Source of the DNA: a virus
Lineage: Duplodnaviria; Caudoviricetes
DNA: 63,248 nt
Strand: one strand, 5' to 3'
Virus record (IMG/VR): IMGVR_UViG_3300019887_000001
Coordinates: 1-63,248 of that record
A program made the translations under genes and the position numbers. This document shows, piece after piece, positions 3,678 to 63,248 of the stretch; position 1 is the first letter of the stretch; each line of letters opens with the position of its first letter. The notes under the pieces are model-generated. The model was not told where the DNA came from, searched no databases, and saw only the letters and a program-made list of their open reading frames with translations.

Positions 3678-5545
3678 TACATTGCTCCTCCCCGCGCAGC
3701 CTGGATACGCGCGACGTCAGCGGGCGTCGCAAAAGGTGAGCCATCCGGTGCCAGCATCGTCTGCTGATGAGACGCCGCGTTCTGCGCCGCGAGCGCGGCG
3801 CTCTGGTCCGGTGCTGTTGGTGCGGGCGACGGCGGCGGCGCGGCCTGTGGTCCGAGCGCCGGGTTACCGAGCGCCTGAGCCGCGAAGTCCGGGGGCGGAG
3901 GTGGCGGGGATGCCGCTGGTGCGGGTGGGCCACCCGTGTTGACCGCGCCGGGTCCCGCGCCGAGCATGAACGACGGTGTCGAGTTTCCCGCGTAGTTCGG
4001 ACTGCCGGGCGCAACCGTGCCCGCAGTGCCTGGCGCTGCGAGACCGGTCGTCGGATCGGTGATCGCTGTCGCCGCGTCCGCCCGTGGCTGCGCGTTCGGG
4101 TCGATGATCGGCTCGCCTGGCGCTGTCGTCGAGCCGGGTGCCGCGGGGGTCGTCTTGGCGGCGAGCGCTTTCGCGGCGGCGTCTTCAGGCGCCGGCGAGC
4201 CATTCGCCATGCCCTCGAGGAACTTCTGCCCGTAACGCATCATCCCCTCAAGTGCCTGGCCTGCGAGCGCGGACCCTGGCGGTAACGCCTTGTTGATCTC
4301 GGCGAGCGCCGACAGGCTGTTCTGCAGCAGTGTGTTGCCAGCGTTCATGCGCGCGGTCTTCGACGCCGCGTCGGTCGAGTACTGCGAGGTCTGCTGACCG
4401 ATGTCCTGGCCGCGTCGCGCCGTTGCGTCCTGCGCCGCCTGAGCCGTCGCGGTCTGCGCGAGCTGCGCCTGGCCGAGGGTGTCCTGCGCGGTCTGGTGGC
4501 GCTCGGTGTTGTAGGCCGCGACGTCCGACGAAGCACGTCTGGCGTCGCCGTCCGCCTCGACCCACGCCTGATGCAACTCGGTCGCCTTCTGGGCCTGCTC
4601 CGCACGCACCGACGCTGCGTCCTCCCCATTCGACACGCGTGTAGCGAGGTCAGCCTGAACCTGCGACGCGTACGCCGTCGCGGCCTGTGCCGCCGCGGAC
4701 ACCTTCGCGTTCGACTGCGACACGGCCAGGTTGCCGTCGGCAATCCGCTGCGCGTCGGTGTCGGTGTAGGCAACGGTCGTGGTCGGACCTGCCGACGGGT
4801 CGGCCGCGATCGCCGCGGGTGTTGGCGGCGTGACGACGACCATGTGATTGCCGACCTGGACCGTCTTGGTGCCGGTCGTGGTGTGGTCCCACGTCGGGTT
4901 GATCTCGGTCCGAACCGTGTCGGCTGCCGTGGTGGTCCCGTCGGGGAGCACCGTCCCAGCCGGCACGCGGTGCATGATGTACTGGTCGCTCGCGGTCGGC
5001 GTGCCGATGATGTCGGACGCGGGCGTTGCCTCAGCCTTGGCGATCGCGTCGGCGACCGTCGCCGCACGCCCGTTCAGCGAACTGAGCAGCGTTGTCTCTG
5101 CGCTACTCAACCCGTCAGGCGTGCCCTGCTTCGCCAGCAGTGGGGCGATCTGGTCGTTGATCGACTTGAGCTGTGCTCGGCCGCCGGCGTCCGATCCGAC
5201 ACCGATCCGAGGAGGCGTGGTGGGCAACGCCGCGGGTGCTGCGGGCGCGGCGGGTGTGGGCGCTCGCGCGGGGGGTAGCGGCGACTGGGGCGGTAGCGCA
5301 GTGGCGTCCCCCCCGCTGGCAAGTTGTGTCGGGGCAACCGGGGTCGCGGCACGTGGCGGAGTTGTTGGTAATGCTCCCGGTGCTGCTGGCGTCGTCGGTG
5401 CGTTCTGCGCGGTCGCGGCGGCCTGCCAGAGCCCGACGTCACCCTGCAGAGGCCCGTTGAGCGGCGTGCCCTGCGCCGTCGTGATCTGCCCCTGGTCGTC
5501 GATGACGTAGGACGCACCCTGATACGTGAACGGCGTGGATGCCAT
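3677..5545 (-). CDS. Internal virion/ejection (DNA pilot-like) protein
   Basis: Ala/Gln/Thr-rich; TAAQDATARRGQDI segment typical of pilot/ejection proteins; TGATG-coupled start at 5545. Confidence 0.62.
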   Translation of the reverse strand: MASTPFTYQGASYVIDDQGQITTAQGTPLNGPLQGDVGLWQAAATAQNAPTTPAAPGALPTTPPRAATPVAPTQLASGGDATALPPQSPLPPARAPTPAAPAAPAALPTTPPRIGVGSDAGGRAQLKSINDQIAPLLAKQGTPDGLSSAETTLLSSLNGRAATVADAIAKAEATPASDIIGTPTASDQYIMHRVPAGTVLPDGTTTAADTVRTEINPTWDHTTTGTKTVQVGNHMVVVTPPTPAAIAADPSAGPTTTVAYTDTDAQRIADGNLAVSQSNAKVSAAAQAATAYASQVQADLATRVSNGEDAASVRAEQAQKATELHQAWVEADGDARRASSDVAAYNTERHQTAQDTLGQAQLAQTATAQAAQDATARRGQDIGQQTSQYSTDAASKTARMNAGNTLLQNSLSALAEINKALPPGSALAGQALEGMMRYGQKFLEGMANGSPAPEDAAAKALAAKTTPAAPGSTTAPGEPIIDPNAQPRADAATAITDPTTGLAAPGTAGTVAPGSPNYAGNSTPSFMLGAGPGAVNTGGPPAPAASPPPPPPDFAAQALGNPALGPQAAPPPSPAPTAPDQSAALAAQNAASHQQTMLAPDGSPFATPADVARIQAARGGAM

Positions 5546-5691: not shown

Positions 5692-6362
5692 GACGGTTGC
5701 CCTTGCTGCGTCGGTTCGGGTGGCGGAAGCCCTGCGGGCCCCGTCGTCGACGGCAATGCGTCAGGCGTGTTGCCCTTCGCCGTCTCTCTGTGCGAGATGG
5801 CGAGAAGTTGCTCTGCCCTAGCCACGGCTTGCTCAGGATTCAACTGATCCAACAGAGCAATTTTGGATCTGTACGGATAAGTTGACTCGAGCGCGCCTCG
5901 CTCTGCGACCGCGTACGGGTCCGGGTCGTTGTGCTGCATGGCGAGCTGCAGCAACTGGTCGTGCTGACGCCAGAACTCCTGCGGCGCGGCCTGTCCGAAC
6001 GGGCTGAAGTGCCACATCTCCTGAATCACCGACGGGTCGGCCGGATTGGTCCCCGTCGGATGCTCACCAATGTTGGCTGCAAGACGCGCCGCCTGGTCGT
6101 TGGCCTGCTGCACGATCAACGCGGCCTGTCGCTCGAACGGGTTCGAGCTCTTCGTCATGTCCGGCGCGTCGACCAGCTTCGCGTCTGGCGGCACGGTCGG
6201 GGATGGCGGCTGGGTCGCCGCGTCTGGAGGTGCCGGCGGCAGGATCGGCGGGGCCGGGCCCGTCTGTGGCGGCGCGCCCGGCGCAACGTCCGGCAACGGC
6301 CCGGCAGACGTCGGGTCTGGCGGAGGCGGGGGACCTGCGGGTGGCGGACCTGGCGGCATCAT
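5688..6362 (-). CDS. Pro-rich hypothetical protein (probably virion-associated)
   Basis: ATGA-coupled start at 6362; helical core flanked by Pro-rich arms. Confidence 0.6.
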   Translation of the reverse strand: MMPPGPPPAGPPPPPDPTSAGPLPDVAPGAPPQTGPAPPILPPAPPDAATQPPSPTVPPDAKLVDAPDMTKSSNPFERQAALIVQQANDQAARLAANIGEHPTGTNPADPSVIQEMWHFSPFGQAAPQEFWRQHDQLLQLAMQHNDPDPYAVAERGALESTYPYRSKIALLDQLNPEQAVARAEQLLAISHRETAKGNTPDALPSTTGPAGLPPPEPTQQGQPS

Positions 6363-6568
6363 GGCAGCGGGGTGAAGTACTTGACGCCCTTGAGATGAGC
6401 ATCCCTCAATGCGATGTCGAGGTCGGTGTGAAACGCGCAGAAGCGTTTGCCGCCCGTAATCCAGTCCACTTCCCATATGGGGGTCGGGTCTTCACCCCAA
6501 TTCATGATCAGGCTCGACCCATGCTTGCGCATCTCTTCGATGCGTTCCGCGAGTTGCAACGCGCTCAT
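6359..6568 (-). CDS. Hypothetical protein
   Basis: 69 aa, coupled on both sides, globular composition. Confidence 0.65.
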   Translation of the reverse strand: MSALQLAERIEEMRKHGSSLIMNWGEDPTPIWEVDWITGGKRFCAFHTDLDIALRDAHLKGVKYFTPLP

Positions 6569-6924
6569 CAGCCCGGCCGACGTTGGAACGCGCCCTGTGC
6601 GGCTCGAGCTAGGCCGAGTGGCACCTTGCGTTTGCCCGCCTTCGACGGGTTCGGTCGTGGTGCCGGGATCGGCATCGGCGGAATCGCGGCACCCTCGGCC
6701 ATTGCCTCGGGTGGCTCGTTGTCCATCATCTCCGAGCCACCCGCCGGCGACGGCGCAGCCCCTTCGTCGGCGTCCGCGGTCAGCCCGATGTTCTCTTGCT
6801 TGGAACGGTCGAGCAGACCCTTGTCCATGGCTTCCTTGTGCTTCTGGGGGCCCGTTTTTGCCCCATATTTCTTAATGAAGCCGGCGCGAGTCCGCTGCCC
6901 GAGCGGTGTGAGTGCTGATGCCAT
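6568..6924 (-). CDS. Small basic phage protein (paralog of 6924-7100)
   Basis: LTPLGQRTRAGFIKKYG..TG...HKEAMDKG; TGATG-coupled start. Confidence 0.65.
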   Translation of the reverse strand: MASALTPLGQRTRAGFIKKYGAKTGPQKHKEAMDKGLLDRSKQENIGLTADADEGAAPSPAGGSEMMDNEPPEAMAEGAAIPPMPIPAPRPNPSKAGKRKVPLGLARAAQGAFQRRPG

Positions 6925-7100
6925 CAGGTCTGCTTCTCCTTCGCCTGGCGTTTGCGGATCGACCCACCGGGCTTCTCCATCTTTTTCGCGTCGATCGTGC
7001 CTTTGTTCATGGCACCGTAGAACACCGCGTCTGCACGCTTTTGCCCGTATCTTTCCTGAAACCCTTGAAGTACTCTTGCTCCTAGTTTCGTAAGGGGCAT
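6924..7100 (-). CDS. Small basic phage protein (MPLTK..G...YG...VFY...NKG type)
   Basis: Motif I recognise from small genes in phage head operons; ATG at 7100. Confidence 0.7.
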   Translation of the reverse strand: MPLTKLGARVLQGFQERYGQKRADAVFYGAMNKGTIDAKKMEKPGGSIRKRQAKEKQT

Positions 7101-7102
7101 CA

Positions 7103-7777
7103 GTGGACACATCCCATAACTGCGTTCTGTGCGGCGTTACGATCAATGATCGTCGCCACCCCAACAAGCCGACGTGTAGCCGCGCATGCGCAGGGCTGCT
7201 TAAACGAACGGTTCCTCCCCGTGAGTGCGAAGGATGCGGACGCCAGTTTCGCGCACTTGCAATAGGCGTCCGCTTCTGCTCCCGTGCTTGCGCCAGTCCG
7301 CGCTATGGATGGCGCCGGCAATTCCGTGAAGACCGCCGGTGTCCGATCTGCGGGATAATGTTCAACACTCAGCGGCTGTCGAGTAAACGCTATTGCTCGC
7401 GGCAGTGCGTAGGAAAGCGACTGCGGTTGGCTGAGCGACCGTGCGTCACATGCGGCGTAGCATTCCAACCTAAAACTGGACGGGTGCGCGCATGTTCGCG
7501 CTCTTGCGGTCGGCGTCATGCGCTTGGATTGATGGGATGGGCGCACCTCTCGGGTGTGCAGGCGAAGAAATATCTTCGTAGGACGGTGAGCGCTTGCCAA
7601 GTATGCGGCTGGAATACTGAACCCGCAGTGCTGGAGTTGCACCACCGTGATCGGAACCGCAGTAACAACAATGCCGTCAACCTTGCGCTCGTCTGCCCCA
7701 ACTGCCACGCGCTCGACCACTTCCATGCGAAGGATGGCCAATTCGCTAACAATCTCGGCAAACTGCGCGCCGGCTAA
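7103..7777 (+). CDS. HNH endonuclease with four CxxC...CSxxC Zn-finger repeats
   Basis: CQVCG...LELHHRDRNRSNN...NLALVCPNCHALDH; antisense insertion flanked by CATCA repeats. Confidence 0.88.
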   Translation: MDTSHNCVLCGVTINDRRHPNKPTCSRACAGLLKRTVPPRECEGCGRQFRALAIGVRFCSRACASPRYGWRRQFREDRRCPICGIMFNTQRLSSKRYCSRQCVGKRLRLAERPCVTCGVAFQPKTGRVRACSRSCGRRHALGLMGWAHLSGVQAKKYLRRTVSACQVCGWNTEPAVLELHHRDRNRSNNNAVNLALVCPNCHALDHFHAKDGQFANNLGKLRAG

Positions 7778-7782
7778 AAACA

Positions 7783-10170
7783 TCACTGCGTCTGCCCGAG
7801 CATCTGCGGCGCCGCGACGACGCCACCGGACGGCATCGCCGCCGGCGCGCCTGTCGCGCCAGCAACACGGGCCTGCGGCCCTGTTCCGAGAGCTCCTGCC
7901 ATTACCCCACCCATCGCGGACTGCGCGACGTTGCCAACCTCGACACCCGCGTTCCCCGGCGGCACGCCCCCGTCTGACTGGTTGAGCAGGTCCGTCGGGC
8001 GGGCAGGCATCAAAGCTGTAGGGACACCGCCTGGACCCATCTTGCCCTGCTGCTGCAGGTTGGCGATCGTGGTCATCTCCGTGTCACCCTGGATCTTCGC
8101 CGCCAGCTTCCACACGAGCTGCTGCCCGTTCGGCGACTTGAGCGCGGTCTCGACGTTGATGCGGTCGACCTCCTCGTCGGGTTGCTCTTCGCCCCAGCCT
8201 TCCTGCAACCACGTGTACAGGCTGAGCGCGCCACCCTTCCACCACTGAAACATTCCCTGAGCAAGTGGCAAGTTGCTGCCCTTGCGCATCGGGAAGATGA
8301 CCTCGACAGACCAGTCGCCGAGCAGGTCTTTGGTCGACAGCGGCAGCAGATCGTGATGCTTCTCCGTCTTCGGGTCGTATCGCGTGTAGACCGGGATCGG
8401 TTCGCCGAGCAGATCCGAGATGCTCGACGCCTGCTCGAGTAGGCACTCGGACGTGCGTTTCATCGCCGCCATCGCGCCCGCAAGGATCTGCCCGAGCGCG
8501 TTCTCGCCGGACGCCTGCGCGACCGCCTGAGAGAATCCGCCGTCGGCCGGATCACCTGAGGTCATCGACTGCGCCGGGCCGAACCGCTCGAGCAGATTGA
8601 GCGCCATGGTGACGAACCACGAGATGTCCTTGTCGACGCCCGCGTGGACGGCTGGCGTGATCTTGCCCGCGACATAGCTGACAGACCCACGGTGAACTTT
8701 GACCTTCATGGGCCGACCGTCTTCCGTCCAGAACTTCGGGTCGACCTGAGACGGGTCCGCGAACCACCCGCCGAAGCCGACCTCGTACGCGTGGTGGACC
8801 AGGCTCGACACCGTCTGATTCACGCCCATAATCAAACTGCTGAAGATGCTGAGCAGCGGAATGCCCTTCTTGTCGGGGTCGCGCTCGGAGGGATGATGAG
8901 CGCCGTAAAAGTACCCGCCGGGCACCTCGGTGATCCCGTACTGCTCGGCCAAATTCACGAAGGCCGTAGTCCGCTTGAGCTCTACGTCACCTGTGTCGGC
9001 GTTCTTGATCGGTTTGCGCAGATACGTGGGATAGACCTTGTTCGCCTGGCGGCTGTCCGCAGGAGCGTCGCCGACCTGATAAAAGATGCCGCCCGGCACA
9101 ACCAGCTCGTACAGGGTGACCTGCAGTCCCCCGCCCAACAGTACCGAGGTGGGACTATAGGAGCCGCCCTCGTCGTTGGGCGTGTCCTGGGCACCGATCA
9201 GGTCCCAGTCGAATCCGAGCGCCTTCAGGCTTCGAACACTGCGGACGGTGCGGACAAGTAACGCGTCGACCTTGCCGGTCGCCGGATCGACGCCGATCGG
9301 CAGGGTGATGTCTGCACTGAGCACCTCGACGACGAACGGTAAGGCGCGCGCCCGCGCGTCGGCCTCGTAATCGTCGAACGCTTTCGCGCTCTTGACGTAG
9401 TCGAGCTTGAACGCGTGCGGCTGATCGGCGTAGAACGCGTCGTCGGGGTCGCGCCCGTCCGCGTCGCGGGTGAAATACGGGTGGATCTTGGTGCCCGACG
9501 GGTCGTCGTCTTCTGGCTCGGTGAAGTCGAGCAGATGACTCCACGACGCCGGCCGCGGCAGCACCAGCAGTCCGTACTCGCCGTCGTTGGCACCATGCGC
9601 GACAAAGCTTTCCCACAGGTCTTCGCCGCCCGCGCGCAGCTCGCCGAGCACGCCAGACTTGCCGGGTGCGCCGAGCCAGTGCTCGACCTTGTCGGCGAGT
9701 CGCGTTGCCATCGGGCCGGGCCCCGACGGACGTCGCACCCCGGGTTTCTTCCGCACGAGGTACTGGATGATGTTCTGCACCATCAGCATCGAATGCGGGA
9801 TCGTCACGCGGAACGCGTCGGCGTTTTCGATGTCGAGCGGCACGTGCGGACGGATCTCGTTGCGGCGGAGTTGTCCCGCTTCGGCGATGCGGCGCCTCGA
9901 GCGGCGGAAGCGTGCGTAGTTGTCTTTCCACAGGTCGCCGAGGTCGAGCGTGCGCGCGTCGCTTGCGACAGCCGTCTGTCGCGATCCGCCGGGGCCCGCC
10001 CACGTCGCGGTCCTCGTCTTCGGTCGGCGGGGCGTGCGTTCGATCGCCTTCGACTGCGGTGCTTCGGACGTGCCGGAGGTCGTCGAGGTGTCCGTGCCGA
10101 CCTGCTGCGAGGCAACCGGTCCGTGGCCGATGCGCGACTTGCCCTTGCCGCTGAGCTGCTGTTCGGCCAT
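7783..10170 (-). CDS. Portal protein
   Basis: 795 aa, downstream of terminase; GIPLL, alpha/beta core and Gln/Gly/Pro/Met-rich tail as in podoviral portals; assignment mainly by size and synteny. Confidence 0.72.
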   Translation of the reverse strand: MAEQQLSGKGKSRIGHGPVASQQVGTDTSTTSGTSEAPQSKAIERTPRRPKTRTATWAGPGGSRQTAVASDARTLDLGDLWKDNYARFRRSRRRIAEAGQLRRNEIRPHVPLDIENADAFRVTIPHSMLMVQNIIQYLVRKKPGVRRPSGPGPMATRLADKVEHWLGAPGKSGVLGELRAGGEDLWESFVAHGANDGEYGLLVLPRPASWSHLLDFTEPEDDDPSGTKIHPYFTRDADGRDPDDAFYADQPHAFKLDYVKSAKAFDDYEADARARALPFVVEVLSADITLPIGVDPATGKVDALLVRTVRSVRSLKALGFDWDLIGAQDTPNDEGGSYSPTSVLLGGGLQVTLYELVVPGGIFYQVGDAPADSRQANKVYPTYLRKPIKNADTGDVELKRTTAFVNLAEQYGITEVPGGYFYGAHHPSERDPDKKGIPLLSIFSSLIMGVNQTVSSLVHHAYEVGFGGWFADPSQVDPKFWTEDGRPMKVKVHRGSVSYVAGKITPAVHAGVDKDISWFVTMALNLLERFGPAQSMTSGDPADGGFSQAVAQASGENALGQILAGAMAAMKRTSECLLEQASSISDLLGEPIPVYTRYDPKTEKHHDLLPLSTKDLLGDWSVEVIFPMRKGSNLPLAQGMFQWWKGGALSLYTWLQEGWGEEQPDEEVDRINVETALKSPNGQQLVWKLAAKIQGDTEMTTIANLQQQGKMGPGGVPTALMPARPTDLLNQSDGGVPPGNAGVEVGNVAQSAMGGVMAGALGTGPQARVAGATGAPAAMPSGGVVAAPQMLGQTQ

Positions 10171-54311: not shown

Positions 54312-54356
54312 AGGGCTATTCCACCTCCTGTGGAGTCCGTACAATTGGCAACACTT

Positions 54357-54388
54357 GGCCCCCGCGATGTTGGAAGCATCCGGGGGCC
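54357..54388. terminator. GC-rich hairpin downstream of MCP
   Basis: GGCCCCC-G(C)GATG-loop-CATCC-GGGGGCC; no clear U-tract. Confidence 0.35.
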
Positions 54389-54414
54389 TGGACACCGAAG
54401 GGAGTAAAGCTTCG

Positions 54415-54888
54415 ATGCCAAGCGGAGTTTACGCGCGGTTGCCGCTCGCGGAGCGGTTCTGGATGAAGGTCATCTGCGATTTGGCCACTGGGTGCTGGTT
54501 TTGGACCGCGAGCCTGTTGCCCTCCGGCTACGGCAGTTTCGGCATACATGGCGAAACCTTTACGGCTCCCCACGTCTCGTGGTTTCTGCACTACGGCGAC
54601 TGGCCGACTCGATGGGTACTTCACCACTGCGATGTGCGGCGCTGCGTTCGGCCTGACCATCTCTTTCTGGGAGATCATCTGGCCAACATGGATGACATGG
54701 TCAAGAAGGGCCGCTCTCGTCGTGGCGAGCGAACCAATCTGGCGAAACTGACCGACCAGCAGGTAATTGCGATGCGTGCAGCCTTCCGAGCCGGCATGAG
54801 CCGGATGGCACTCGCCGCCGAGTACGGACTGGATCATTCGACCGTCGCGTACATTATTCGCCGTAAAACATGGGCGCATTTGCCATAA
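54415..54888 (+). CDS. HNH homing endonuclease with C-terminal HTH
   Basis: RFWMKV...GCWFWT, VLHHCDVRRCVRPDHLFLG...NMDDM..KGR. Confidence 0.9.
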   Translation: MPSGVYARLPLAERFWMKVICDLATGCWFWTASLLPSGYGSFGIHGETFTAPHVSWFLHYGDWPTRWVLHHCDVRRCVRPDHLFLGDHLANMDDMVKKGRSRRGERTNLAKLTDQQVIAMRAAFRAGMSRMALAAEYGLDHSTVAYIIRRKTWAHLP

Positions 54889-54909
54889 ATACCACGCCGA
54901 TATGGCTAA

Positions 54910-55905
54910 TCACCCAGCTACGGCGGTCTCAATTCTGAGTATTCGTGCCGCGTCAAGTATCTTAGCGCAATAAGCAACTTTCCAGCCTGCGACCCCGTAC
55001 TGCTGCAGCGGGTCGACCTTCGATGGCGTGTTCGCGGGCACAACCATGATGTCGATGCCGGCGTTGTTCGTCTCGGCGTTCAGGTTGCCGATCGTCTGAG
55101 AAGCCAGGTCGACGGCGCCGAACGCGTACGGGCCCCAGATCAGCGCGGCGTGGACGTCGACACCCGCCGCGCCAGCACCCGTGAAGATCGGGTTGGCCGT
55201 GCTGACGTCGAAGTTGACGCCTTCGATCTCGCCGACGGTGCCACTCATGAACGACGCCGGCGCGGCGTAGCGCATGATGTCGAGCCAGCCGCCGGTCGCA
55301 GCGTCGGCCTTCAGGTCGTACTTCTGCGACGGAGTGACGGAGCCGTGGTAACGCGCGTCGGGAAACCGCGGCACGTTCGCCTTTTCCATCGTGCGAACGG
55401 CCTTGCGAACCTCGGACATGACGAAGTTCATGCCCGCCGCGACCGTCACCCTGGAGACTGCCGTCGAGGCGTACTGAACTGTCGAAGACGCGCCCAGCTC
55501 GGTCGCGGTCAGCGTGTGGACCGACAGACCGGCTTGCTCACCTTCGACGTCCATGACGTTGGACATCGACGGGTCGATGCCCGCGCGAATGAGCAGGTCT
55601 GAGACCTTTTGGAACGCCCCGTACTGGGCGAGCGTCGAGGTTACCGCGGTGACGGTCAGCGACCCCTCAGAAGGCGGCGTGCCTTCAGTCAGCGCCGACG
55701 TCGCGGCTGGGAGACTGCCCCACTTGCGCCACTGGATGCCCGTACCAGTGTTGCTGCCGATCGTGTCGGTCATCGCGTCTTTGAGCAGCGGCAGGTACGG
55801 GAGCAGACGCCTCAGCGTCTTGGCCACGTAATACGATCGCTGCTCGACCGTCAACGTGGCGTAGGTCTGTACGGAAATTTGCTTTACCCGCGTCTTTCTA
55901 TACAT
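54910..55905 (-). CDS. Major capsid protein (N4-gp56-like)
   Basis: LTEG.PP, LAQYG, V..M..ANVP, G.VGEIEGV.F, DPLQQYG..GWK; true start uncertain (see findings). Confidence 0.92.
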   Translation of the reverse strand: MYRKTRVKQISVQTYATLTVEQRSYYVAKTLRRLLPYLPLLKDAMTDTIGSNTGTGIQWRKWGSLPAATSALTEGTPPSEGSLTVTAVTSTLAQYGAFQKVSDLLIRAGIDPSMSNVMDVEGEQAGLSVHTLTATELGASSTVQYASTAVSRVTVAAGMNFVMSEVRKAVRTMEKANVPRFPDARYHGSVTPSQKYDLKADAATGGWLDIMRYAAPASFMSGTVGEIEGVNFDVSTANPIFTGAGAAGVDVHAALIWGPYAFGAVDLASQTIGNLNAETNNAGIDIMVVPANTPSKVDPLQQYGVAGWKVAYCAKILDAARILRIETAVAG

Positions 55906-55907
55906 CC

Positions 55908-55922
55908 TGCTATAATGAGCAG
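55908..55922 (+). promoter_or_regulatory. Extended -10 leaderless promoter for antisense HNH gene
   Basis: TG-C-TATAAT then 6 nt then ATG 55923. Confidence 0.7.
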
Positions 55923-56873
55923 ATGTATGGGTGTGGGGCTTGTGGGTTGTTGAAGGTGGCGGCCGACTTCTATCGGGACCTGCGGTACCCGGAGTGGACT
56001 CCGCGGAGTTACTGCAAGGCGTGTATGGCCGCGAAGCGCAAGGCCCCTAACGTTCACTGGTTGGCGAAGCCGTGCACCGGATGTCGACGAATGGTCCCGA
56101 TGGACGGGTTCTACTTCCAGAAACAAGGTTGGCTCATGCAGCCGTGTAAGGCGTGCCGTGCGGCCTACCGTCCAGCACGCCTCGAAGTCACTGAGTCGCG
56201 ATGTAGTAAGTGCAAGCTGACGAAGCCGGCCGCAGCGTTCGGTGCTGATGCGAACAAAGCCTCGAGACTCGCATCTTGGTGTTTGACTTGTACGCGCGCT
56301 AGGCGCCCCGCCACCATCGTCGTGCCGTCCGAGAAACGCTGCCCGACGTGCGACACGACGAAACCAGCCGACGAGTTCTACCGGACGGATCGTCGGCCCG
56401 ATGGGTTGTATGCCCGCTGCAAAAATTGCCACAATGCGCGGGCATATCCCGGCCAGAAGCGCTACAAAGCAGCGAACAAGGAACAGGTGGCGGAGTGGAA
56501 TCTGCGATGGCACCACGAAAGTTGGTCGCCTGAAGCAAAGGCCGCGTCGATTCAAAAACTGAAGGAATGGAATGCGGCCAATCCGGATGAGCACGCCATT
56601 CGAGGCGAACGACGTCGCGCGCGCATTGCCGGCACTCTCCCCAATGATTTCACTGGCACGCAGTTCAAAGCACTGAAAACTCTTTACCGAGGGCGCTGCG
56701 CGTACTGCGGTAAGAAACCGAAGCCACCAGACACGTTGGTAATTGAGCACGTCATCCCAGTCTCGAAAGGTGGGCCGAATACGCTCAGCAACATCGTGCC
56801 ATCGTGCGGACCATGTAACGACAAAAAACACGCGAACCGCGCGCCAACTCATCAGCCGACGTTGCTCATATAG
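55923..56873 (+). CDS. HNH endonuclease with four Zn-finger repeats
   Basis: Repeated CxxC...K....F....CK.C; CAYCG...EHVIPVSKGG.N...NIVPSC..CN..K. Confidence 0.9.
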   Translation: MYGCGACGLLKVAADFYRDLRYPEWTPRSYCKACMAAKRKAPNVHWLAKPCTGCRRMVPMDGFYFQKQGWLMQPCKACRAAYRPARLEVTESRCSKCKLTKPAAAFGADANKASRLASWCLTCTRARRPATIVVPSEKRCPTCDTTKPADEFYRTDRRPDGLYARCKNCHNARAYPGQKRYKAANKEQVAEWNLRWHHESWSPEAKAASIQKLKEWNAANPDEHAIRGERRRARIAGTLPNDFTGTQFKALKTLYRGRCAYCGKKPKPPDTLVIEHVIPVSKGGPNTLSNIVPSCGPCNDKKHANRAPTHQPTLLI

Positions 56874-56890
56874 GACATAGGCGGAAACTC

Positions 56891-58433: not shown

Positions 58434-58618
58434 GATCTCTCCTCGAAGCCGCAGCACTGCTTGGCGGTATTTGCGCGGTCGCGCTGTTCTCAGGCGGCAG
58501 CATACTCATTGGCACGATCCTGTTCGGAGCGTTGATTGCGGGGTTCGGTCTGTACTTCCGCGCTTACCCCGAACGGGCTGAAGCTCTCAGGCGCAGCAAC
58601 CCAGCCAACTTCGCCTAG
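58430..58618 (+). CDS. Small 2-TM membrane protein
   Basis: ATGA-coupled to repeat protein. Confidence 0.65.
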   Translation: MRSLLEAAALLGGICAVALFSGGSILIGTILFGALIAGFGLYFRAYPERAEALRRSNPANFA

Positions 58619-61600
58619 GGTGGCGTGCCGAGGGACAACACATCAGTCCCAGCACCAACAAGCCCACCCGCGGCCGCGGTGTTCGATGTGTTCGTCAGTG
58701 CGCCGCCTGTCGCAGCGTCGATCGCGGCCTTGAGCTTGTTCAAGCGCTCAGTGTCGACCCGATCACGCTGAGTGAGTTTGAACCCGGCCGGGTCGTCGAT
58801 CCGCATGCGCATTTCACCCCTGCTCGGCCCGAGCGCCTTCGTGTACTGAGCGAGTTTGGTTTTTGCCTCGGCGATCTGCAGGTTCTGCTCCGCGATCTGC
58901 TGCGGCGTGCCGGTAACGTTGCGATACTGAGGCGTCTGCTGCCACTGCAACAACGCGGTGTTGTGCGGGTCGCGCGCGATGTTTCCGCCAAGGTCGATAT
59001 TCGCGGCTTTGCGCGCGGTTGCCAGTGACTTCGAGAGCGCGTTCGCTTTCTGAGCGTCGGTGAGTCCGGCGTAGGCCGGATCGGCCATCGTATTGAGCGC
59101 GTACAGGTTGACGGCGTTGCCAACCGTTCGCTGGATCAACGATTGCTGGTCGGGCGCCTGCGCGGCCCCCTGGTAGCCGCCGATGCCACTCACAGACGGC
59201 GGGGTGATACCTATGGCTTGGCCGGCCTGACGGAGCCGCATCACTTCGTTGATGACCGGTCCACCAGACCCGCCGCTCGTCGCGGTGATCACATCCGGCG
59301 AGCTGCCGCGCTTGGCCATGAACGTGCCAAGGCCGGCTTGTTCGTTGGGTAACACGCGCCCGAGCACATCGCGACTCAGCGGTACGTTCTGGCGCAGTCC
59401 TGGCAGGTTCTGGCTGAGGACCTGGCCGATGTCGCCTGAAACAGGCTTGCGTGCACCCTCCGTATCGGCAGCCCTGGTGAGACTGGCGACAAGTCCACTC
59501 TCAGGAACAAACCCGCCCGCAAGCGAGCCGCCGAACTGAGCGATAACCGATTGAGCAGTCGGCCCGCCGTGAATCACCGTGTACAGATCGCTCAGTGTCC
59601 GCAGCCCGGTGGCGTCGCCGAGGTAGCTCACCGTGCGGTCGGCCATATCGAGGGCAACCTGCTCAGGCGTGGCTGCGGTCGTCGTCTTCAGACCCGTCGT
59701 CGGGTCAACCTGTTTCTGTGGATAGTTTGTCGCGTCGGCGTAGTTGCCAGCCAATGCGAACGGAACCGCGAGCGGGCCGAGCAAGTGGTAGTCAACGTAT
59801 CCAAGGCCCGGAACGTAGACGCTGTGGGCCTGCCAGCCTTTTGAGACGAGCATCTTGCGCTCGTCGGGATCCGCAGGACCATTGCCGGTGATCGAGCCGT
59901 CGAGTGCCTTGGATGCCAGGTAACCCGTGAGTGCCGTCCCAGCGATGTTGTTGGTGAGCCGATCGCTGAGTGGAGTGACCGCGCCGCCAAGTTTGTTGAA
60001 GCCACTGGCGTAAGGACCTGCACCGCGCAATCCGCGCAGCACGTCGAAGCCAGTCCCAACAAGCCCGATGGGTGACTTCTCAATGCCCTGCGCAAATGCC
60101 TGAGAAGCGATCTTGACGACGGGGAACAGCGCGTTGCCTGCGACGGGCACATTCGCGATGTTTTGCATGACTGTCTGAATAGTGCCCGCCTCGCCACGCA
60201 AAGCCCCGCGGCTGCCGATATCCTCAGCTTTGGCGATCGCTTGCTGGTTCAGCCCCAGACTCGGATCATTGATCAGCTCGCTAACTCGTCTGACAAAGTC
60301 CGGACCGTGAAGTCCCTCCGAACTGGCGACTTCGCCTGCTTGCGCTCCGAGCTCCATGTGTTTGATCGCTTGCTGGGCGACATTCTGGAATGCCGAGTGC
60401 AGCGCGGCGCCGGTCGCCTGCTGAGCCCTCAACGCCCCGGCCAGGATCGGATTGTCGACGCGGTTGGCGATATTGGTCGGGGCAGCATAAAAGTCCCTGA
60501 TGGCCGAGCCGAACGCGTCGCCTGAACGCGCGAGCGCGGCCGACATTCCGATGCTACGGCCGGCGATGCGGTCGAATTGCGCCCCCTGGCCGGTAAGCGG
60601 TGAGGCAAGTGTTTGGACGACATCCTTACCCGTTTGGGTAGCGAGTGACCACGCGGGCGCAATGATCGAGTTGACGGCCACGTGCGTAAGCGTCGAGAGA
60701 CCGCTGATGACGTTGCCCGAGTGAACAGCTTTCAGGATGTCTATCGCGGTTGGTGGCTCACCTGGAACAGCCGGCGGTTCCGCAGGCGCACCAGGGGGTG
60801 TGCCGGTAGTTGTTGGTGGTTCGACGGGGGGTGTTGGAGGCTCACCAACACCCCCCGTCGTCGCAGAAGCCGGCCGTGTCTCGGCAGGCGTGCGCGGTAG
60901 TTGGGCTTCCAACTCGGATACGTCATAGCCCCGGTCCTTCGCCATGTTGACGAGACCCTGAAGTAGCGTGTCGCCCTGCTGCGCTGGTGGCGTCAGGTCA
61001 GCGGCTGCAGCGTTTGGCGCAATGCCTGGCACAGACGGCTCGCCGGCGCTACCGATACCACGCTCCGCCGCTGCTGCAACATCAGGTGCCGTAGCCTCAA
61101 CGGCGGACGCCGCATCTGGTGCCGCATTCTGAAGTGCCGCGAGCGCCTTGCCCGGACCAGACGCAGTAATGCTGCCCTCGCTCATCTGTGGGAACTTCGC
61201 GCGGAGATCCGTGACTGCCTGTTGTGCACTGGACAGTGCGGCTTCGAGTGCTTCAGGCGATGACTTGGCGACGACGTCGGCCAGCTCCGCCGCGGCCTTC
61301 TCGCCACCCGCGCCCGGTGACAGACTCGTGACGTCCGCGGCAGCGCCGAGGATGACGCCCGCTGCGCCGAGGATGTCACCCTGCCCGGTTGCTCCCTGAA
61401 ACTGGCCGGGTGCCGAGAGCAACGGGGTGAGGACGTCGGGGACGACCTGGTTGCCGCCGACGTTGACGCCAGCGGTGCCAGGACCTGACGGAATCGGTTG
61501 ATTCGCGGCTTCCCGGAGTTGATCGAAGACCGTCGGCTGCGGCGTCTGTCCCGCGAGCGGCCCCTCGGGCGGCGTGTACAGGTTGGGTCGCGCGATCGGG

Positions 61601-63248
61601 TTCGTCAGCGTGTCGGACGGCGTGGGCTGCCCGCCGCGCGGCACGTTGGAAACGTCGGTCGAGATGACGTTGCCGTACTGGTCTTTGGGTTGCGCAGCCG
61701 GCGACGGGTTGACGCTCGTGTCCGCGGGCAAGTTCGCGGCCATCGTCGCCCCTCCGCCGCCGGTCAGGTGCTGCACCAGGCCCGTGATCGCGTCGGTGAG
61801 CTGCGACCCGAAGCGCTGGACCGGGTTCTGGTCTGGTTGATTCGTCGAGGTCACTGCCGTGGGTGTGGCAGGCGTTGGCGCGCTCGGGACGGGTGTCGCG
61901 GCACCCGAAGCAACCGTCGCGTCTAGCGCCTGCTTGAGGGCTGTTTCGCGCTGTGTGGCTTCCGCGTTCAGGTCGGACTGCTTCTGCGCCGTCTGCCTGT
62001 TCAGCGCGTCGAGGTCTGAGGTCGCCGACGTTGTCTGCACCTGAGCCTGAGCCGTGTTCGCCTGCGCGTCCGCGCTGAGCTTTGTGTAGTCAGGTCCGAC
62101 TGGCGTCGTCGTGTCACTGGCACCGCCACCGACGGGCCCCCCGCCGCCGCCGAACATCGCGTCGTAGTTCTGGCCGGCGCGCTCAGGCGATACCGAAACC
62201 TGCCCGTGCTGCTGGGCGAACGTCGCCAGATCGGAACCGACCAGGCCCAGCTTGACGCCAGACTGGATGGCCGCGCCGAGGTAGCCGGGACTGTCGGGTG
62301 TGCCGATCGCCCATCGAACGGCATCGAGCGGAGCCTGCTCGATCGCGTCCCTCGCCTGCGCGAGGCTGACGCCGAGGTGCTGCGCGTACGCGTTGAGTTG
62401 TCCCGCCCGGCCACCCTCCTCACCGAAGAATTGCAGCGGACCGGCCGACGAGCCCGCGTCGCCGCGCGCGTTGTTGAGCCCGCCTTCGGTGACAAGCACC
62501 GACTGCAACGCCTTCTGCCCTTCGACGCCGAGCCACGACGCCGCCTGAGCGCCACCCGACAGGATCGCTTGCCCGGCGTCGCCGATCCTGCCCGCAAGTG
62601 CGCCCCCGCCGCTCAGCCCCGCAGTCGTCGCAGTCGCGCTCGAGGTCGTCGACGCGACGGACGGGTGCGGACTGTTCGGGTTGTCGGCGTAGAGCGCGGC
62701 GCGGACCGCACCACCGCTCTGCGACATGCCGTTGATCTGCGCCTGGGACATCCAGGCGGAGCCACCGCGGAGGTCGAGGCCGCTGGTGCCGACGTGATAC
62801 TGGACTGTCCCATCGGCACCCTGCCGCGCCGAGTCGATGTAGTAGTAGTGGCCAGGCGTGTCGAGGATGACCGGGTTACCGTTCATCGAATCCTGCTGGA
62901 CGTGATTCCAGTCGACGGTCGTCTCCAGTTTGGTAGCCACTCCCAACTTGGTGAGCAGAGCCTGCTCACCAGTCACGCCAGACATGCCTGCATCAGAGGT
63001 CCATCCAACGGCGCGCGCCAGGTCGGTAGCCTCCTGTGCGGTCGGGTTGCGGCCCATCTGCCGCGCGAATCCCACGCTCGCGGCGATTCCGCACGCTGCG
63101 TAGGCGTCCGCCGTCGACAGCCCCATGCCGAACTGCGACTGATGGGTGTCGCCAGCCGGCGGCGTCGGGTTCGCGAGCGGATTGGTCAACGTGTCGCTCG
63201 AGGTCGGGACGTTGGTCGGTGTCGCGGGCGCGGGTGATGGCCCCAGAC
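58615..63248 (-). CDS. Giant internal virion protein, C-terminal part: C39-like peptidase, lysozyme-like and helical polyvalent domains
   Basis: Frame open to the window end; Q...AACG...PGHYY; VTEGG....GD...SAGPLQF; RDVLG C-terminal motif. Confidence 0.8.
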   Translation of the reverse strand, partial: LGPSPAPATPTNVPTSSDTLTNPLANPTPPAGDTHQSQFGMGLSTADAYAACGIAASVGFARQMGRNPTAQEATDLARAVGWTSDAGMSGVTGEQALLTKLGVATKLETTVDWNHVQQDSMNGNPVILDTPGHYYYIDSARQGADGTVQYHVGTSGLDLRGGSAWMSQAQINGMSQSGGAVRAALYADNPNSPHPSVASTTSSATATTAGLSGGGALAGRIGDAGQAILSGGAQAASWLGVEGQKALQSVLVTEGGLNNARGDAGSSAGPLQFFGEEGGRAGQLNAYAQHLGVSLAQARDAIEQAPLDAVRWAIGTPDSPGYLGAAIQSGVKLGLVGSDLATFAQQHGQVSVSPERAGQNYDAMFGGGGGPVGGGASDTTTPVGPDYTKLSADAQANTAQAQVQTTSATSDLDALNRQTAQKQSDLNAEATQRETALKQALDATVASGAATPVPSAPTPATPTAVTSTNQPDQNPVQRFGSQLTDAITGLVQHLTGGGGATMAANLPADTSVNPSPAAQPKDQYGNVISTDVSNVPRGGQPTPSDTLTNPIARPNLYTPPEGPLAGQTPQPTVFDQLREAANQPIPSGPGTAGVNVGGNQVVPDVLTPLLSAPGQFQGATGQGDILGAAGVILGAAADVTSLSPGAGGEKAAAELADVVAKSSPEALEAALSSAQQAVTDLRAKFPQMSEGSITASGPGKALAALQNAAPDAASAVEATAPDVAAAAERGIGSAGEPSVPGIAPNAAAADLTPPAQQGDTLLQGLVNMAKDRGYDVSELEAQLPRTPAETRPASATTGGVGEPPTPPVEPPTTTGTPPGAPAEPPAVPGEPPTAIDILKAVHSGNVISGLSTLTHVAVNSIIAPAWSLATQTGKDVVQTLASPLTGQGAQFDRIAGRSIGMSAALARSGDAFGSAIRDFYAAPTNIANRVDNPILAGALRAQQATGAALHSAFQNVAQQAIKHMELGAQAGEVASSEGLHGPDFVRRVSELINDPSLGLNQQAIAKAEDIGSRGALRGEAGTIQTVMQNIANVPVAGNALFPVVKIASQAFAQGIEKSPIGLVGTGFDVLRGLRGAGPYASGFNKLGGAVTPLSDRLTNNIAGTALTGYLASKALDGSITGNGPADPDERKMLVSKGWQAHSVYVPGLGYVDYHLLGPLAVPFALAGNYADATNYPQKQVDPTTGLKTTTAATPEQVALDMADRTVSYLGDATGLRTLSDLYTVIHGGPTAQSVIAQFGGSLAGGFVPESGLVASLTRAADTEGARKPVSGDIGQVLSQNLPGLRQNVPLSRDVLGRVLPNEQAGLGTFMAKRGSSPDVITATSGGSGGPVINEVMRLRQAGQAIGITPPSVSGIGGYQGAAQAPDQQSLIQRTVGNAVNLYALNTMADPAYAGLTDAQKANALSKSLATARKAANIDLGGNIARDPHNTALLQWQQTPQYRNVTGTPQQIAEQNLQIAEAKTKLAQYTKALGPSRGEMRMRIDDPAGFKLTQRDRVDTERLNKLKAAIDAATGGALTNTSNTAAAGGLVGAGTDVLSLGTPP

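Follow-up and report, generated by a model that had tools for sequence, protein, structure and literature searches.

An inverted HNH gene between two stop/start overlaps

The window that we analyzed is an entire viral contig of 63,248 bp (IMG/VR record IMGVR_UViG_3300019887_000001; Duplodnaviria, Caudoviricetes) that has a GC content of 64% and has most of its genes on its minus strand. The plus strand carries a free-standing HNH endonuclease gene (HNH1) between two minus-strand genes, one portal-like and one encoding a small basic protein, and opposite to HNH1 runs a long open reading frame (ORF) that we call relay ORF 1 (Table 1). HNH1 is recognized as an HNH endonuclease by its PHROG matches, which beyond the best one comprise 13 further families that are in their majority annotated as HNH endonuclease, and by HNH residues shared without exception by six aligned homologues (H180, H181, D183, N185, N193, C198, P199, N200, C201, H202, and H206). 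The Pfam profile HNH_3 matches with E 1.5e-4 and 21.8 bits, under its gathering cutoff of 24.8, and the HNH domain of group II intron maturase 6me0 gives a weak profile match (E 0.0078). Homologues reach identities of up to 52%, and HNH1 as a single query against viral contigs retrieved no relative. The GC content at third codon positions (GC3) is 0.63 in HNH1 compared to around 0.8 in the neighboring genes.

Relay ORF 1 is tied to both neighbors by TGATG, i.e., by the stop/start overlap typical of coupled gene pairs, because its ATG overlaps the stop codon of the portal-like gene and its own stop codon overlaps the ATG of the small gene. The frame is open from stop to stop between 8083 and 7103, and its first start codons are GTG 7786, an alternative start that would give 228 codons, and ATG 7783. 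Owing to the exact codon alignment, stop codons in this frame would be TTA, CTA, and TCA sense codons of HNH1. The plus strand reads CATCA at 7098-7102 and again at 7781-7785, the two copies are spaced by 683 nt, and removal of 683 nt leaves a TGATG junction again. The original prediction had described this layout for 7098-7786, including the link of the antisense frame to its neighbors at both ends and the effect of the 683-nt removal, and all motifs and frames were found where it had placed them. Identical contigs from 3 soil-metagenome DNA runs (2 studies; one possibly the source) span both junctions, which are therefore no assembly artifact, and a joint without HNH1 was not seen in these 3 runs. 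Between positions 6300 and 8300, an Rfam scan gave no match to an intron or known RNA, and the predicted promoter and terminator sites, one minus-strand sigma-70-like site inside HNH1 (7382-7355) and 2 plus-strand terminator-like sites, were all at chance level. Nucleotide and protein searches of a phage collection with this region and the portal-like protein gave no match.

Two further inverted HNH genes lie in the minus-strand structural block of the same contig: HNH3, which separates a scaffold-like gene from the major head gene, and HNH2, which separates the latter from the gene that comes next. The frame opposite HNH2 stops 4 nt before ATG 54311, just as described earlier for a weaker case of the same pattern at 54879-54316. 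Relay 3, opposite HNH3, opens with an 8-codon mini-ORF (56878-56852) that is led by a Shine-Dalgarno (SD) motif and whose TGA overlaps ATG 56852, and it stops 5 nt before an ATT at the start position used by relatives.

Relatives without these HNH genes reveal the interrupted sites. In L001, whose portal is 72% identical, the portal stop TAA and the ATG of the small-gene homologue are separated by 1 nt (G) with no HNH gene between them, which supports the reading that HNH1 is an insertion placed exactly at a stop/start junction. The structural genes of L002, L003, and L004 are contiguous without HNH2 and HNH3, and HNH2 is also missing at its site in L005. The uninterrupted junctions are tight: ATGA in L003, TGATG in L005, and TAA followed by 3 nt in L004 or 1 nt in L001. 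Homologues of HNH3 occupy the same site in the same orientation in L005, L006, and L009 (51-57% identity), and L009 also carries an HNH2 homologue. Presence/absence polymorphism at a conserved site was found for HNH1 (by way of L001), HNH2, HNH3, and the Gordonia phages described below.

Table 1. Coordinates of the three HNH genes of the window, their antisense frames, and adjoining features
Feature	Position	Strand	Description
HNH1, free-standing HNH endonuclease gene	7103..7777	+	224 aa, GTG start, TAA stop; phrog_1271 E 3.3e-25
SD-like AAGGGG for HNH1	7092..7097	+	antisense to small-gene codons 2-3
Relay ORF 1	7100..7783	-	227 codons + stop from ATG 7783; codon-aligned antisense to all of HNH1
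Upstream TGATG junction	7781..7785	-	portal stop TGA / relay ATG (7783-7781), 1-nt overlap
Downstream TGATG junction	7098..7102	-	relay stop TGA (7102-7100) overlaps ATG 7100 of the small gene
Upstream portal-like gene	7783..10170	-	795 aa, ends CAG TGA, stop 7785-7783
Downstream small gene	6924..7100	-	58-aa basic protein, N-terminus MPLTKLGARV, conserved in L001
HNH2, inverted HNH endonuclease gene	54415..54888	+	T7 gp7.7-like HNH_3 family; phrog_1872 E 1.1e-25
Relay frame 2	54316..54909	-	open from the major-head stop, same frame; first ATG 54879; TAG 54318-54316
HNH3, inverted HNH gene	55923..56873	+	endonuclease VII / HNH; phrog_1035 E 2.5e-40
Relay 3	55884..56878	-	322-aa ORF from ATG 56852, antisense to HNH3; TAA 55886-55884

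Open antisense frames beyond chance

HNH1 contains none of the codons TTA, CTA, or TCA among its 15 CTN, 7 TCN, and 3 TTR codons, and HNH1-3 pooled have 0 among 38 CTN, 19 TCN, and 14 TTR codons, with the frame open in 3/3 genes. A-ending codons elsewhere make up 19% in HNH1-3 and 12% in the rest of the genome. Using the codon usage of the genome's other 71 ORFs as null model, the probability of an open frame, P(open), is 0.108 for HNH1 and 0.144 and 0.038 for the other two HNH genes. Since an open aligned antisense frame is also found in 20 of the genome's 74 ORFs, the single case of HNH1 is weak; among ORFs of at least 199 codons such a frame is present in 4 of 30, 2 of these 4 being HNH genes.

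The inverted HNH homologues of L005, L006, and L009 are all spanned by an open antisense ORF as well (185-346 codons). For the three related-contig genes with clean coordinates, the null probabilities (P0) are 0.116 (L005 HNH3), 0.025 (L009 HNH3), and 0.124 (L009 HNH2), and the product over all six inverted HNH genes is around 2e-7. Where residues are conserved, the codons of these homologues agree in 39-54% of cases, with 40% expected from independent draws, and the homologues are therefore effectively independent samples. Once independent instances are counted, the data thus support that the antisense frame is open more often than by chance. Nor are double junctions common by chance, which would have spoken strongly against the original prediction: when codons were resampled with the HNH protein fixed and random spacers of 0-20 nt, a tight double junction appeared in 103 of 30,000 trials (0.34%) and a loose one in 2.1%. 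As a separate observation, the HNH3 homologue of L006 (1192-2185) is split into two overlapping frames by a frameshift or sequencing error, and a single ORF of 294 codons spans it on the operon strand.

We then surveyed viral contigs with an HNH2-family profile (Pfam HNH_3), which gave 594 confirmed loci, of which the best 80 were fetched; 1 without an in-frame stop was dropped, 79 were analyzed, and removal of 4 at ≥70% identity reduced the set to 75 loci (median pairwise identity, 41%). Loci were classed by the strands of both neighbors, which were called by a rule based on GC3 and ORF length. The aligned frame was open in 11/19 antisense-embedded HNH_3 genes but only 1/26 co-oriented ones (Fisher p = 7e-5), and local codon usage would predict 3.98 instead of these 11 (Poisson-binomial tail 1.4e-4). 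This difference was also seen in the subset with GC ≥0.55 (9/14 vs 1/16; p = 0.0014) and under a longer gene-start rule (8/19 vs 0/26; p = 3.5e-4). All 12 spanning ORFs of the antisense-embedded class use the aligned frame. CTA and TCA together account for 9 of 216 CTN and TCN codons in antisense-embedded genes compared to 31 of 245 in co-oriented ones (p = 0.0014), while A-ending codons of the other four-fold families amount to 18.7% and 16.0%, respectively. The depletion is confined to antisense-stop codons, and a strand-wide mutational bias is therefore no explanation.

The junction geometry recurs together with the open frame. Measured against a background of all long open stretches, real genes included, the stop of the bridging ORF overlaps a start codon that opens at least 50 codons at 8 of the 11 open loci (background 22.7%; p = 6e-4) and lies within 5 nt of such a start at 10 of them (background 33%; p = 1e-4), the downstream overlap motifs being ATGA, GTGA, or TAATG. 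The first start codon of the bridging ORF is no more than 10 nt from the upstream gene's stop at 8/11 open loci, and locus L059 combines TGATG upstream with ATGA downstream. A preference for CAT (antisense ATG) at the conserved C-terminal histidine of HNH_3 genes was not significant, with 5 CAT and 6 CAC codons in inverted genes compared to 4 CAT and 9 CAC codons. In L010 (2495-3136), an unrelated viral contig of 62% GC, an ORF of 211 codons covers an inverted HNH_3/AP2 gene, with spacings of 3 nt to the preceding stop and 3 nt to the following start, and a second survey with the HNH1 family yielded an inverted HNH gene on a contig of only 41% GC (L113) that is fully spanned by an open frame of 249 codons. 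The relay pattern suspected at the outset, with a start at or near the upstream stop and a stop on the next start, is therefore found in unrelated contigs and likewise in Gordonia phages.

These phages of Gordonia are available in culture. The section of the Vivi2 genome note that covers its HNH genes describes them only as transcribed leftward and as the sole leftward genes (PMC4991695). By our count, two of the 4 HNH genes of Vivi2 are co-oriented and have 1 and 3 antisense stops, and the other two are inverted and have none. Opposite inverted gp38, an ORF begins 6 nt downstream of the gp37 stop and terminates with TGATG on the annotated start of gp39. Opposite gp43 (gp35 in phage Nordenberg), the bridging ORF starts at the native ribosome-binding site and ATG of the endolysin gene and terminates in ATGA where the endolysin start occurs for a second time. 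Gordonia phages fall into HNH-bearing and HNH-less sets with flank identities of 94-99%, and comparison of Nordenberg to its HNH-less sibling Ailee shows a left flank that is 97% identical through the first endolysin codons and, right of the insert, an endolysin that is 74% identical. Judged from these sequences, the insertion in Nordenberg and Vivi2 duplicates a gene start, and the two copies are linked by an open frame, which is what the original prediction had put forward for the window.

In both phages (Nordenberg, NC_055777, L237 2195-2270; Vivi2, L239 37402-37477), the endolysin frame contains the ATG overlapped by the relay stop. The N-terminus read from this upstream ATG matches the Ailee endolysin from residue 1, and the annotated start is therefore probably 25 codons too short.

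Proposed translation across the insert and rival explanations

We consider it likely, with a probability of roughly 0.7, that the bridging ORF is under selection and preserves translation through the inverted HNH1 insert. A homing-type HNH gene was inserted in inverted orientation into the stop/start junction between the portal and small genes of a minus-strand late structural operon, so that the operon mRNA must cross 683 nt of foreign DNA in antisense. An untranslated stretch in an operon would invite Rho-dependent termination and decay, and 0.5-1 kb of it in a coupled late operon would be expected to uncouple the downstream cistron. Selection would keep the codon-aligned frame free of stops at no other cost to the HNH gene than avoidance of the synonymous codons TTA, CTA, and TCA, and the aligned frame would be used because synonymous changes alone keep it open. 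Ribosomes that finish the portal gene would re-initiate at the overlapping ATG, translate the 227 codons into a relay polypeptide that is itself functionless, end on the small gene's start codon, and initiate anew at that codon. The transcript would thereby stay covered with ribosomes, Rho-type polarity and decay would be avoided, and the ancestral translational coupling would be kept. The sequences show the insertion, its geometry, an avoidance of stop codons that exceeds chance, and the recurrence in other genomes; we infer that the relay ORF is translated and that coupling or protection from polarity is the benefit, and being translated seems to be the sole purpose of the intermediate cistron.

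Several observations weigh against this interpretation. HNH1 alone is not significant at P(open) 0.108. Upstream of ATG 7100, pairing to the anti-SD sequence is average (-4.9 kcal/mol, 37th percentile of the genome), the gene after HNH2 (ATG 54311) is preceded by a strong SD (-11.6 kcal/mol), and the stop of relay 3 lies 19 nt past ATG 55905, the first ATG of the major head ORF; a dependence on coupling is thus not evident from sequence. In the survey, 8 of the 19 antisense-embedded HNH_3 genes carry 1-9 antisense stops and the relay is not obligatory. Among cultured Gordonia phages, Belphegor has an inverted HNH gene with 3 antisense stops, and the arrangement is therefore common, not universal. 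The HNH1-family survey (65 loci after de-duplication, mainly low-GC) is sensitive to the gene-start rule, with open frames in 4/13 vs 1/27 genes under the short rule and 1/13 vs 0/27 under the long one. Finally, PHROGs confirmed just 3 of 20 neighboring proteins tested, so that the reality of the survey neighbors rests on ORF length and GC3.

An alternative that we regard as unlikely is that the antisense ORF is a true overlapping gene with a function of its own, e.g., as a regulator or immunity factor of the endonuclease. Such a gene would fit with a frame that is kept open in homologues of 51-57% identity, and long antisense ORFs that are translated have been reported from Pseudomonas (PMC8850804). 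However, the same arrangement is found over three unrelated HNH architectures within one genome and over survey HNH genes that are only about 41% identical, it always uses the aligned frame that is cheapest to keep open, and its ends are tied to the stop and start codons of neighbors instead of signals of its own. Relay ORF 1 belongs to no Pfam or PHROG family, and the bridging ORFs of L010, L113, and Vivi2 gp38 gave no Pfam match either.

About equally improbable is a genuine target-site duplication, transposition-like or mediated by microhomology, of which the in-frame relation would be a by-product. A 5-nt direct repeat brackets the insert precisely, the 683-nt removal leaves a TGATG junction, the first endolysin codons are present twice around the inverted HNH gene of Nordenberg and Vivi2, and the upstream ATG TTT TTA resembles the small-gene start ATG CCT TTA of L001 in 7/9 bases. 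Against it, HNH-less L001 reads TAA-G-ATG without any CATCA/TGATG, five bases are too short for a test, other relay loci have different overlap motifs at their two ends, and an aligned open frame would still require a coincidence of about 1/3 x 0.11. Target duplications are not known to arise from HNH homing by double-strand-break repair. A direct repeat present once in the empty site was not found in L001, which with a portal of only 72% identity is no strict empty-site control. Because the two junctions are stop/start overlaps of one type, they share the five bases in any case. Given the real start duplication in Nordenberg, the earlier suggestion of a target-site-like duplication is reasonable; for the window it is unproven, as L001 and the differing motifs elsewhere do not bear it out.

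Least probable of all is chance combined with codon bias, by which aligned antisense frames would often be open at 64% GC and the two TGATG would be coincidental: the 20/74 open ORFs, the P(open) of HNH1, a P0 of around 0.5 in high-GC3 Vivi2 genes, and the 2.1% of loose double junctions are in its favor, but it does not account for six inverted HNH genes that are all open, the survey contrast by orientation, the sparing of A-ending codons other than the three antisense stops, the open frame of L113 at low GC, or the rarity of tight double junctions in simulations.

Selection for a translated relay across HNH1 may have a more general counterpart. We lean slightly towards the view that it is common for cassettes of homing endonucleases inverted within phage operons to bring along or evolve a bridging cistron, a stop-free frame on the strand of the host operon that is translated over the full length of the selfish gene and hands ribosomes to the displaced start. 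Such a cistron would either take over the initiation signal of the interrupted gene or couple to the upstream stop. If so, this would be a general and previously unrecognized way for the insertion of a mobile element to be near-neutral for operon expression, and hundreds of "shadow ORFs" opposite HNH genes would be translated and selected for translation itself.

All components of this arrangement have known counterparts. Like free-standing homing endonuclease genes (seg/mob of T4, hegA / F-TflIV of T5, and gp7.7 of the T7 group), HNH1 encodes an HNH nuclease placed between conserved genes, and inserts of this kind are present or absent at one site among close relatives; the one-sided divergence of flanks in Nordenberg is what co-conversion predicts, and tblastn found relatives of the T5 hegA and T7 7.7 types. 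The cases described in the relevant part of a T4 review are co-oriented, and overlap or coupling serves to express or limit the endonuclease itself (PMC2988022). By comparison with the genes covered there, the gene is inverted here and coupling concerns the host operon that reads through it. The motifs are those of ordinary stop/start coupling in phage operons (ATGA, TGATG), and at the junctions that are interrupted here, relatives without the HNH genes show ATGA, TGATG, or a spacing of 1-3 nt. Unlike in ordinary coupling, two coupling sites are joined here by a long ORF that is antisense to a foreign gene and encodes no recognizable protein.

Leader or upstream cistrons load ribosomes for a downstream gene, and translation suppresses Rho-dependent polarity. 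Here, too, it would be the act of translation and not its product that matters, though the cistron spans 190-350 codons and shares its DNA with a mobile gene. Long antisense ORFs are known in GC-rich bacteria (PMC8850804). Such "shadow" ORFs are likewise codon-aligned opposite a real gene and open for lack of TTA, CTA, and TCA, but in our case this absence exceeds the prediction from codon usage, depends on the orientation to the operon, and occurs even at 41% GC. Full-text topic searches of the literature returned no account of bridging ORFs that cross an inverted HNH or homing endonuclease gene, and we rate the relay as a new arrangement built from known parts.

If correct, selection for translation through the insert would account for a selfish gene being tolerated in reverse orientation within an essential, tightly coupled late operon without harm to the phage, add a class of ORFs selected only for being translated, and mean that the needs of the host operon shape synonymous codon choice in homing endonuclease genes. 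For genome annotation, a stop-free frame that lies opposite an inverted HNH gene and is tied in by ATGA or TGATG should be treated as a feature and not as noise, a rule that also exposes mis-set starts such as those of the Nordenberg and Vivi2 endolysins. The idea is directly testable since cultured Gordonia phages exist with and without the insert.

Major head start, HNH1 repeats, and neighboring genes

Relay frame 2 is in frame with the major head gene (54879-54912), and read-through of the TGA would add around 197 residues to the capsid protein. Survey loci L027 and L096 are likewise in frame with the upstream stop, as would be expected at a chance rate of about one in three.

In relatives without HNH3, the major head gene starts with ATG, ATG, or GTG, and the same position in HNH3-bearing genomes reads ATT (window), ATC/ATA (L009), or TTG (L006). 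L009 (~3940-3965) has no canonical in-frame start codon for the major head gene after the preceding stop, L005 (~1810-1870) has an ATT one codon earlier behind a strong AGGAGGG, and among all 67 starts of the window, ATG 55905 ranks last in SD strength. In the window (55876-55905), L005, and L009, these non-canonical codons follow the relay stop at a distance of 4-10 nt. With a non-canonical codon at the start position and a relay stop close by, translation of the major capsid protein may begin at a non-canonical codon that is fed by the relay. Should this be true, some structural genes could depend on a relay, with major head genes that have ATT or ATC at their start position as candidates. 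V7 of the major head protein was considered as a GTG start overlapping the relay stop and rejected because the codon is GTA.

The SD-like motif of HNH1 forms a duplex of -7.5 kcal/mol with the anti-SD sequence, which places it in the stronger 13% of gene starts of the genome. The N-terminal two thirds of the protein (7103-7600, plus strand) consist of four CxxC(G)...CSRxC repeats that are probably zinc-binding DNA-recognition modules, and Pfam gave only a faint zf-C2HC_2 match to them.

The 795-aa protein encoded upstream of HNH1 has no Pfam or PHROGs match and is 72% identical to its L001 homologue. Its nearest clusters and structural matches in the ESM Atlas are P22_portal and SU10_portal (TM 0.5-0.57), which makes portal a reasonable label, albeit only a lead. 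Conservation of the small-gene N-terminus in L001 indicates that this gene starts at ATG 7100 and not at 7112. Its stop codon forms a third TGATG (6922-6926) with the next, paralogous gene (6568..6924), and neither of the two small basic proteins has a Pfam or PHROGs match. Tandem paralogous genes for small basic proteins follow the portal both in the window (6568-7100) and in L001 (8228-8699), and in both they start with approximately MPLTKLGA-. Elsewhere on the minus strand, an ORF of 1524 aa (58615-63189) lies directly upstream of the scaffold-like and head genes.

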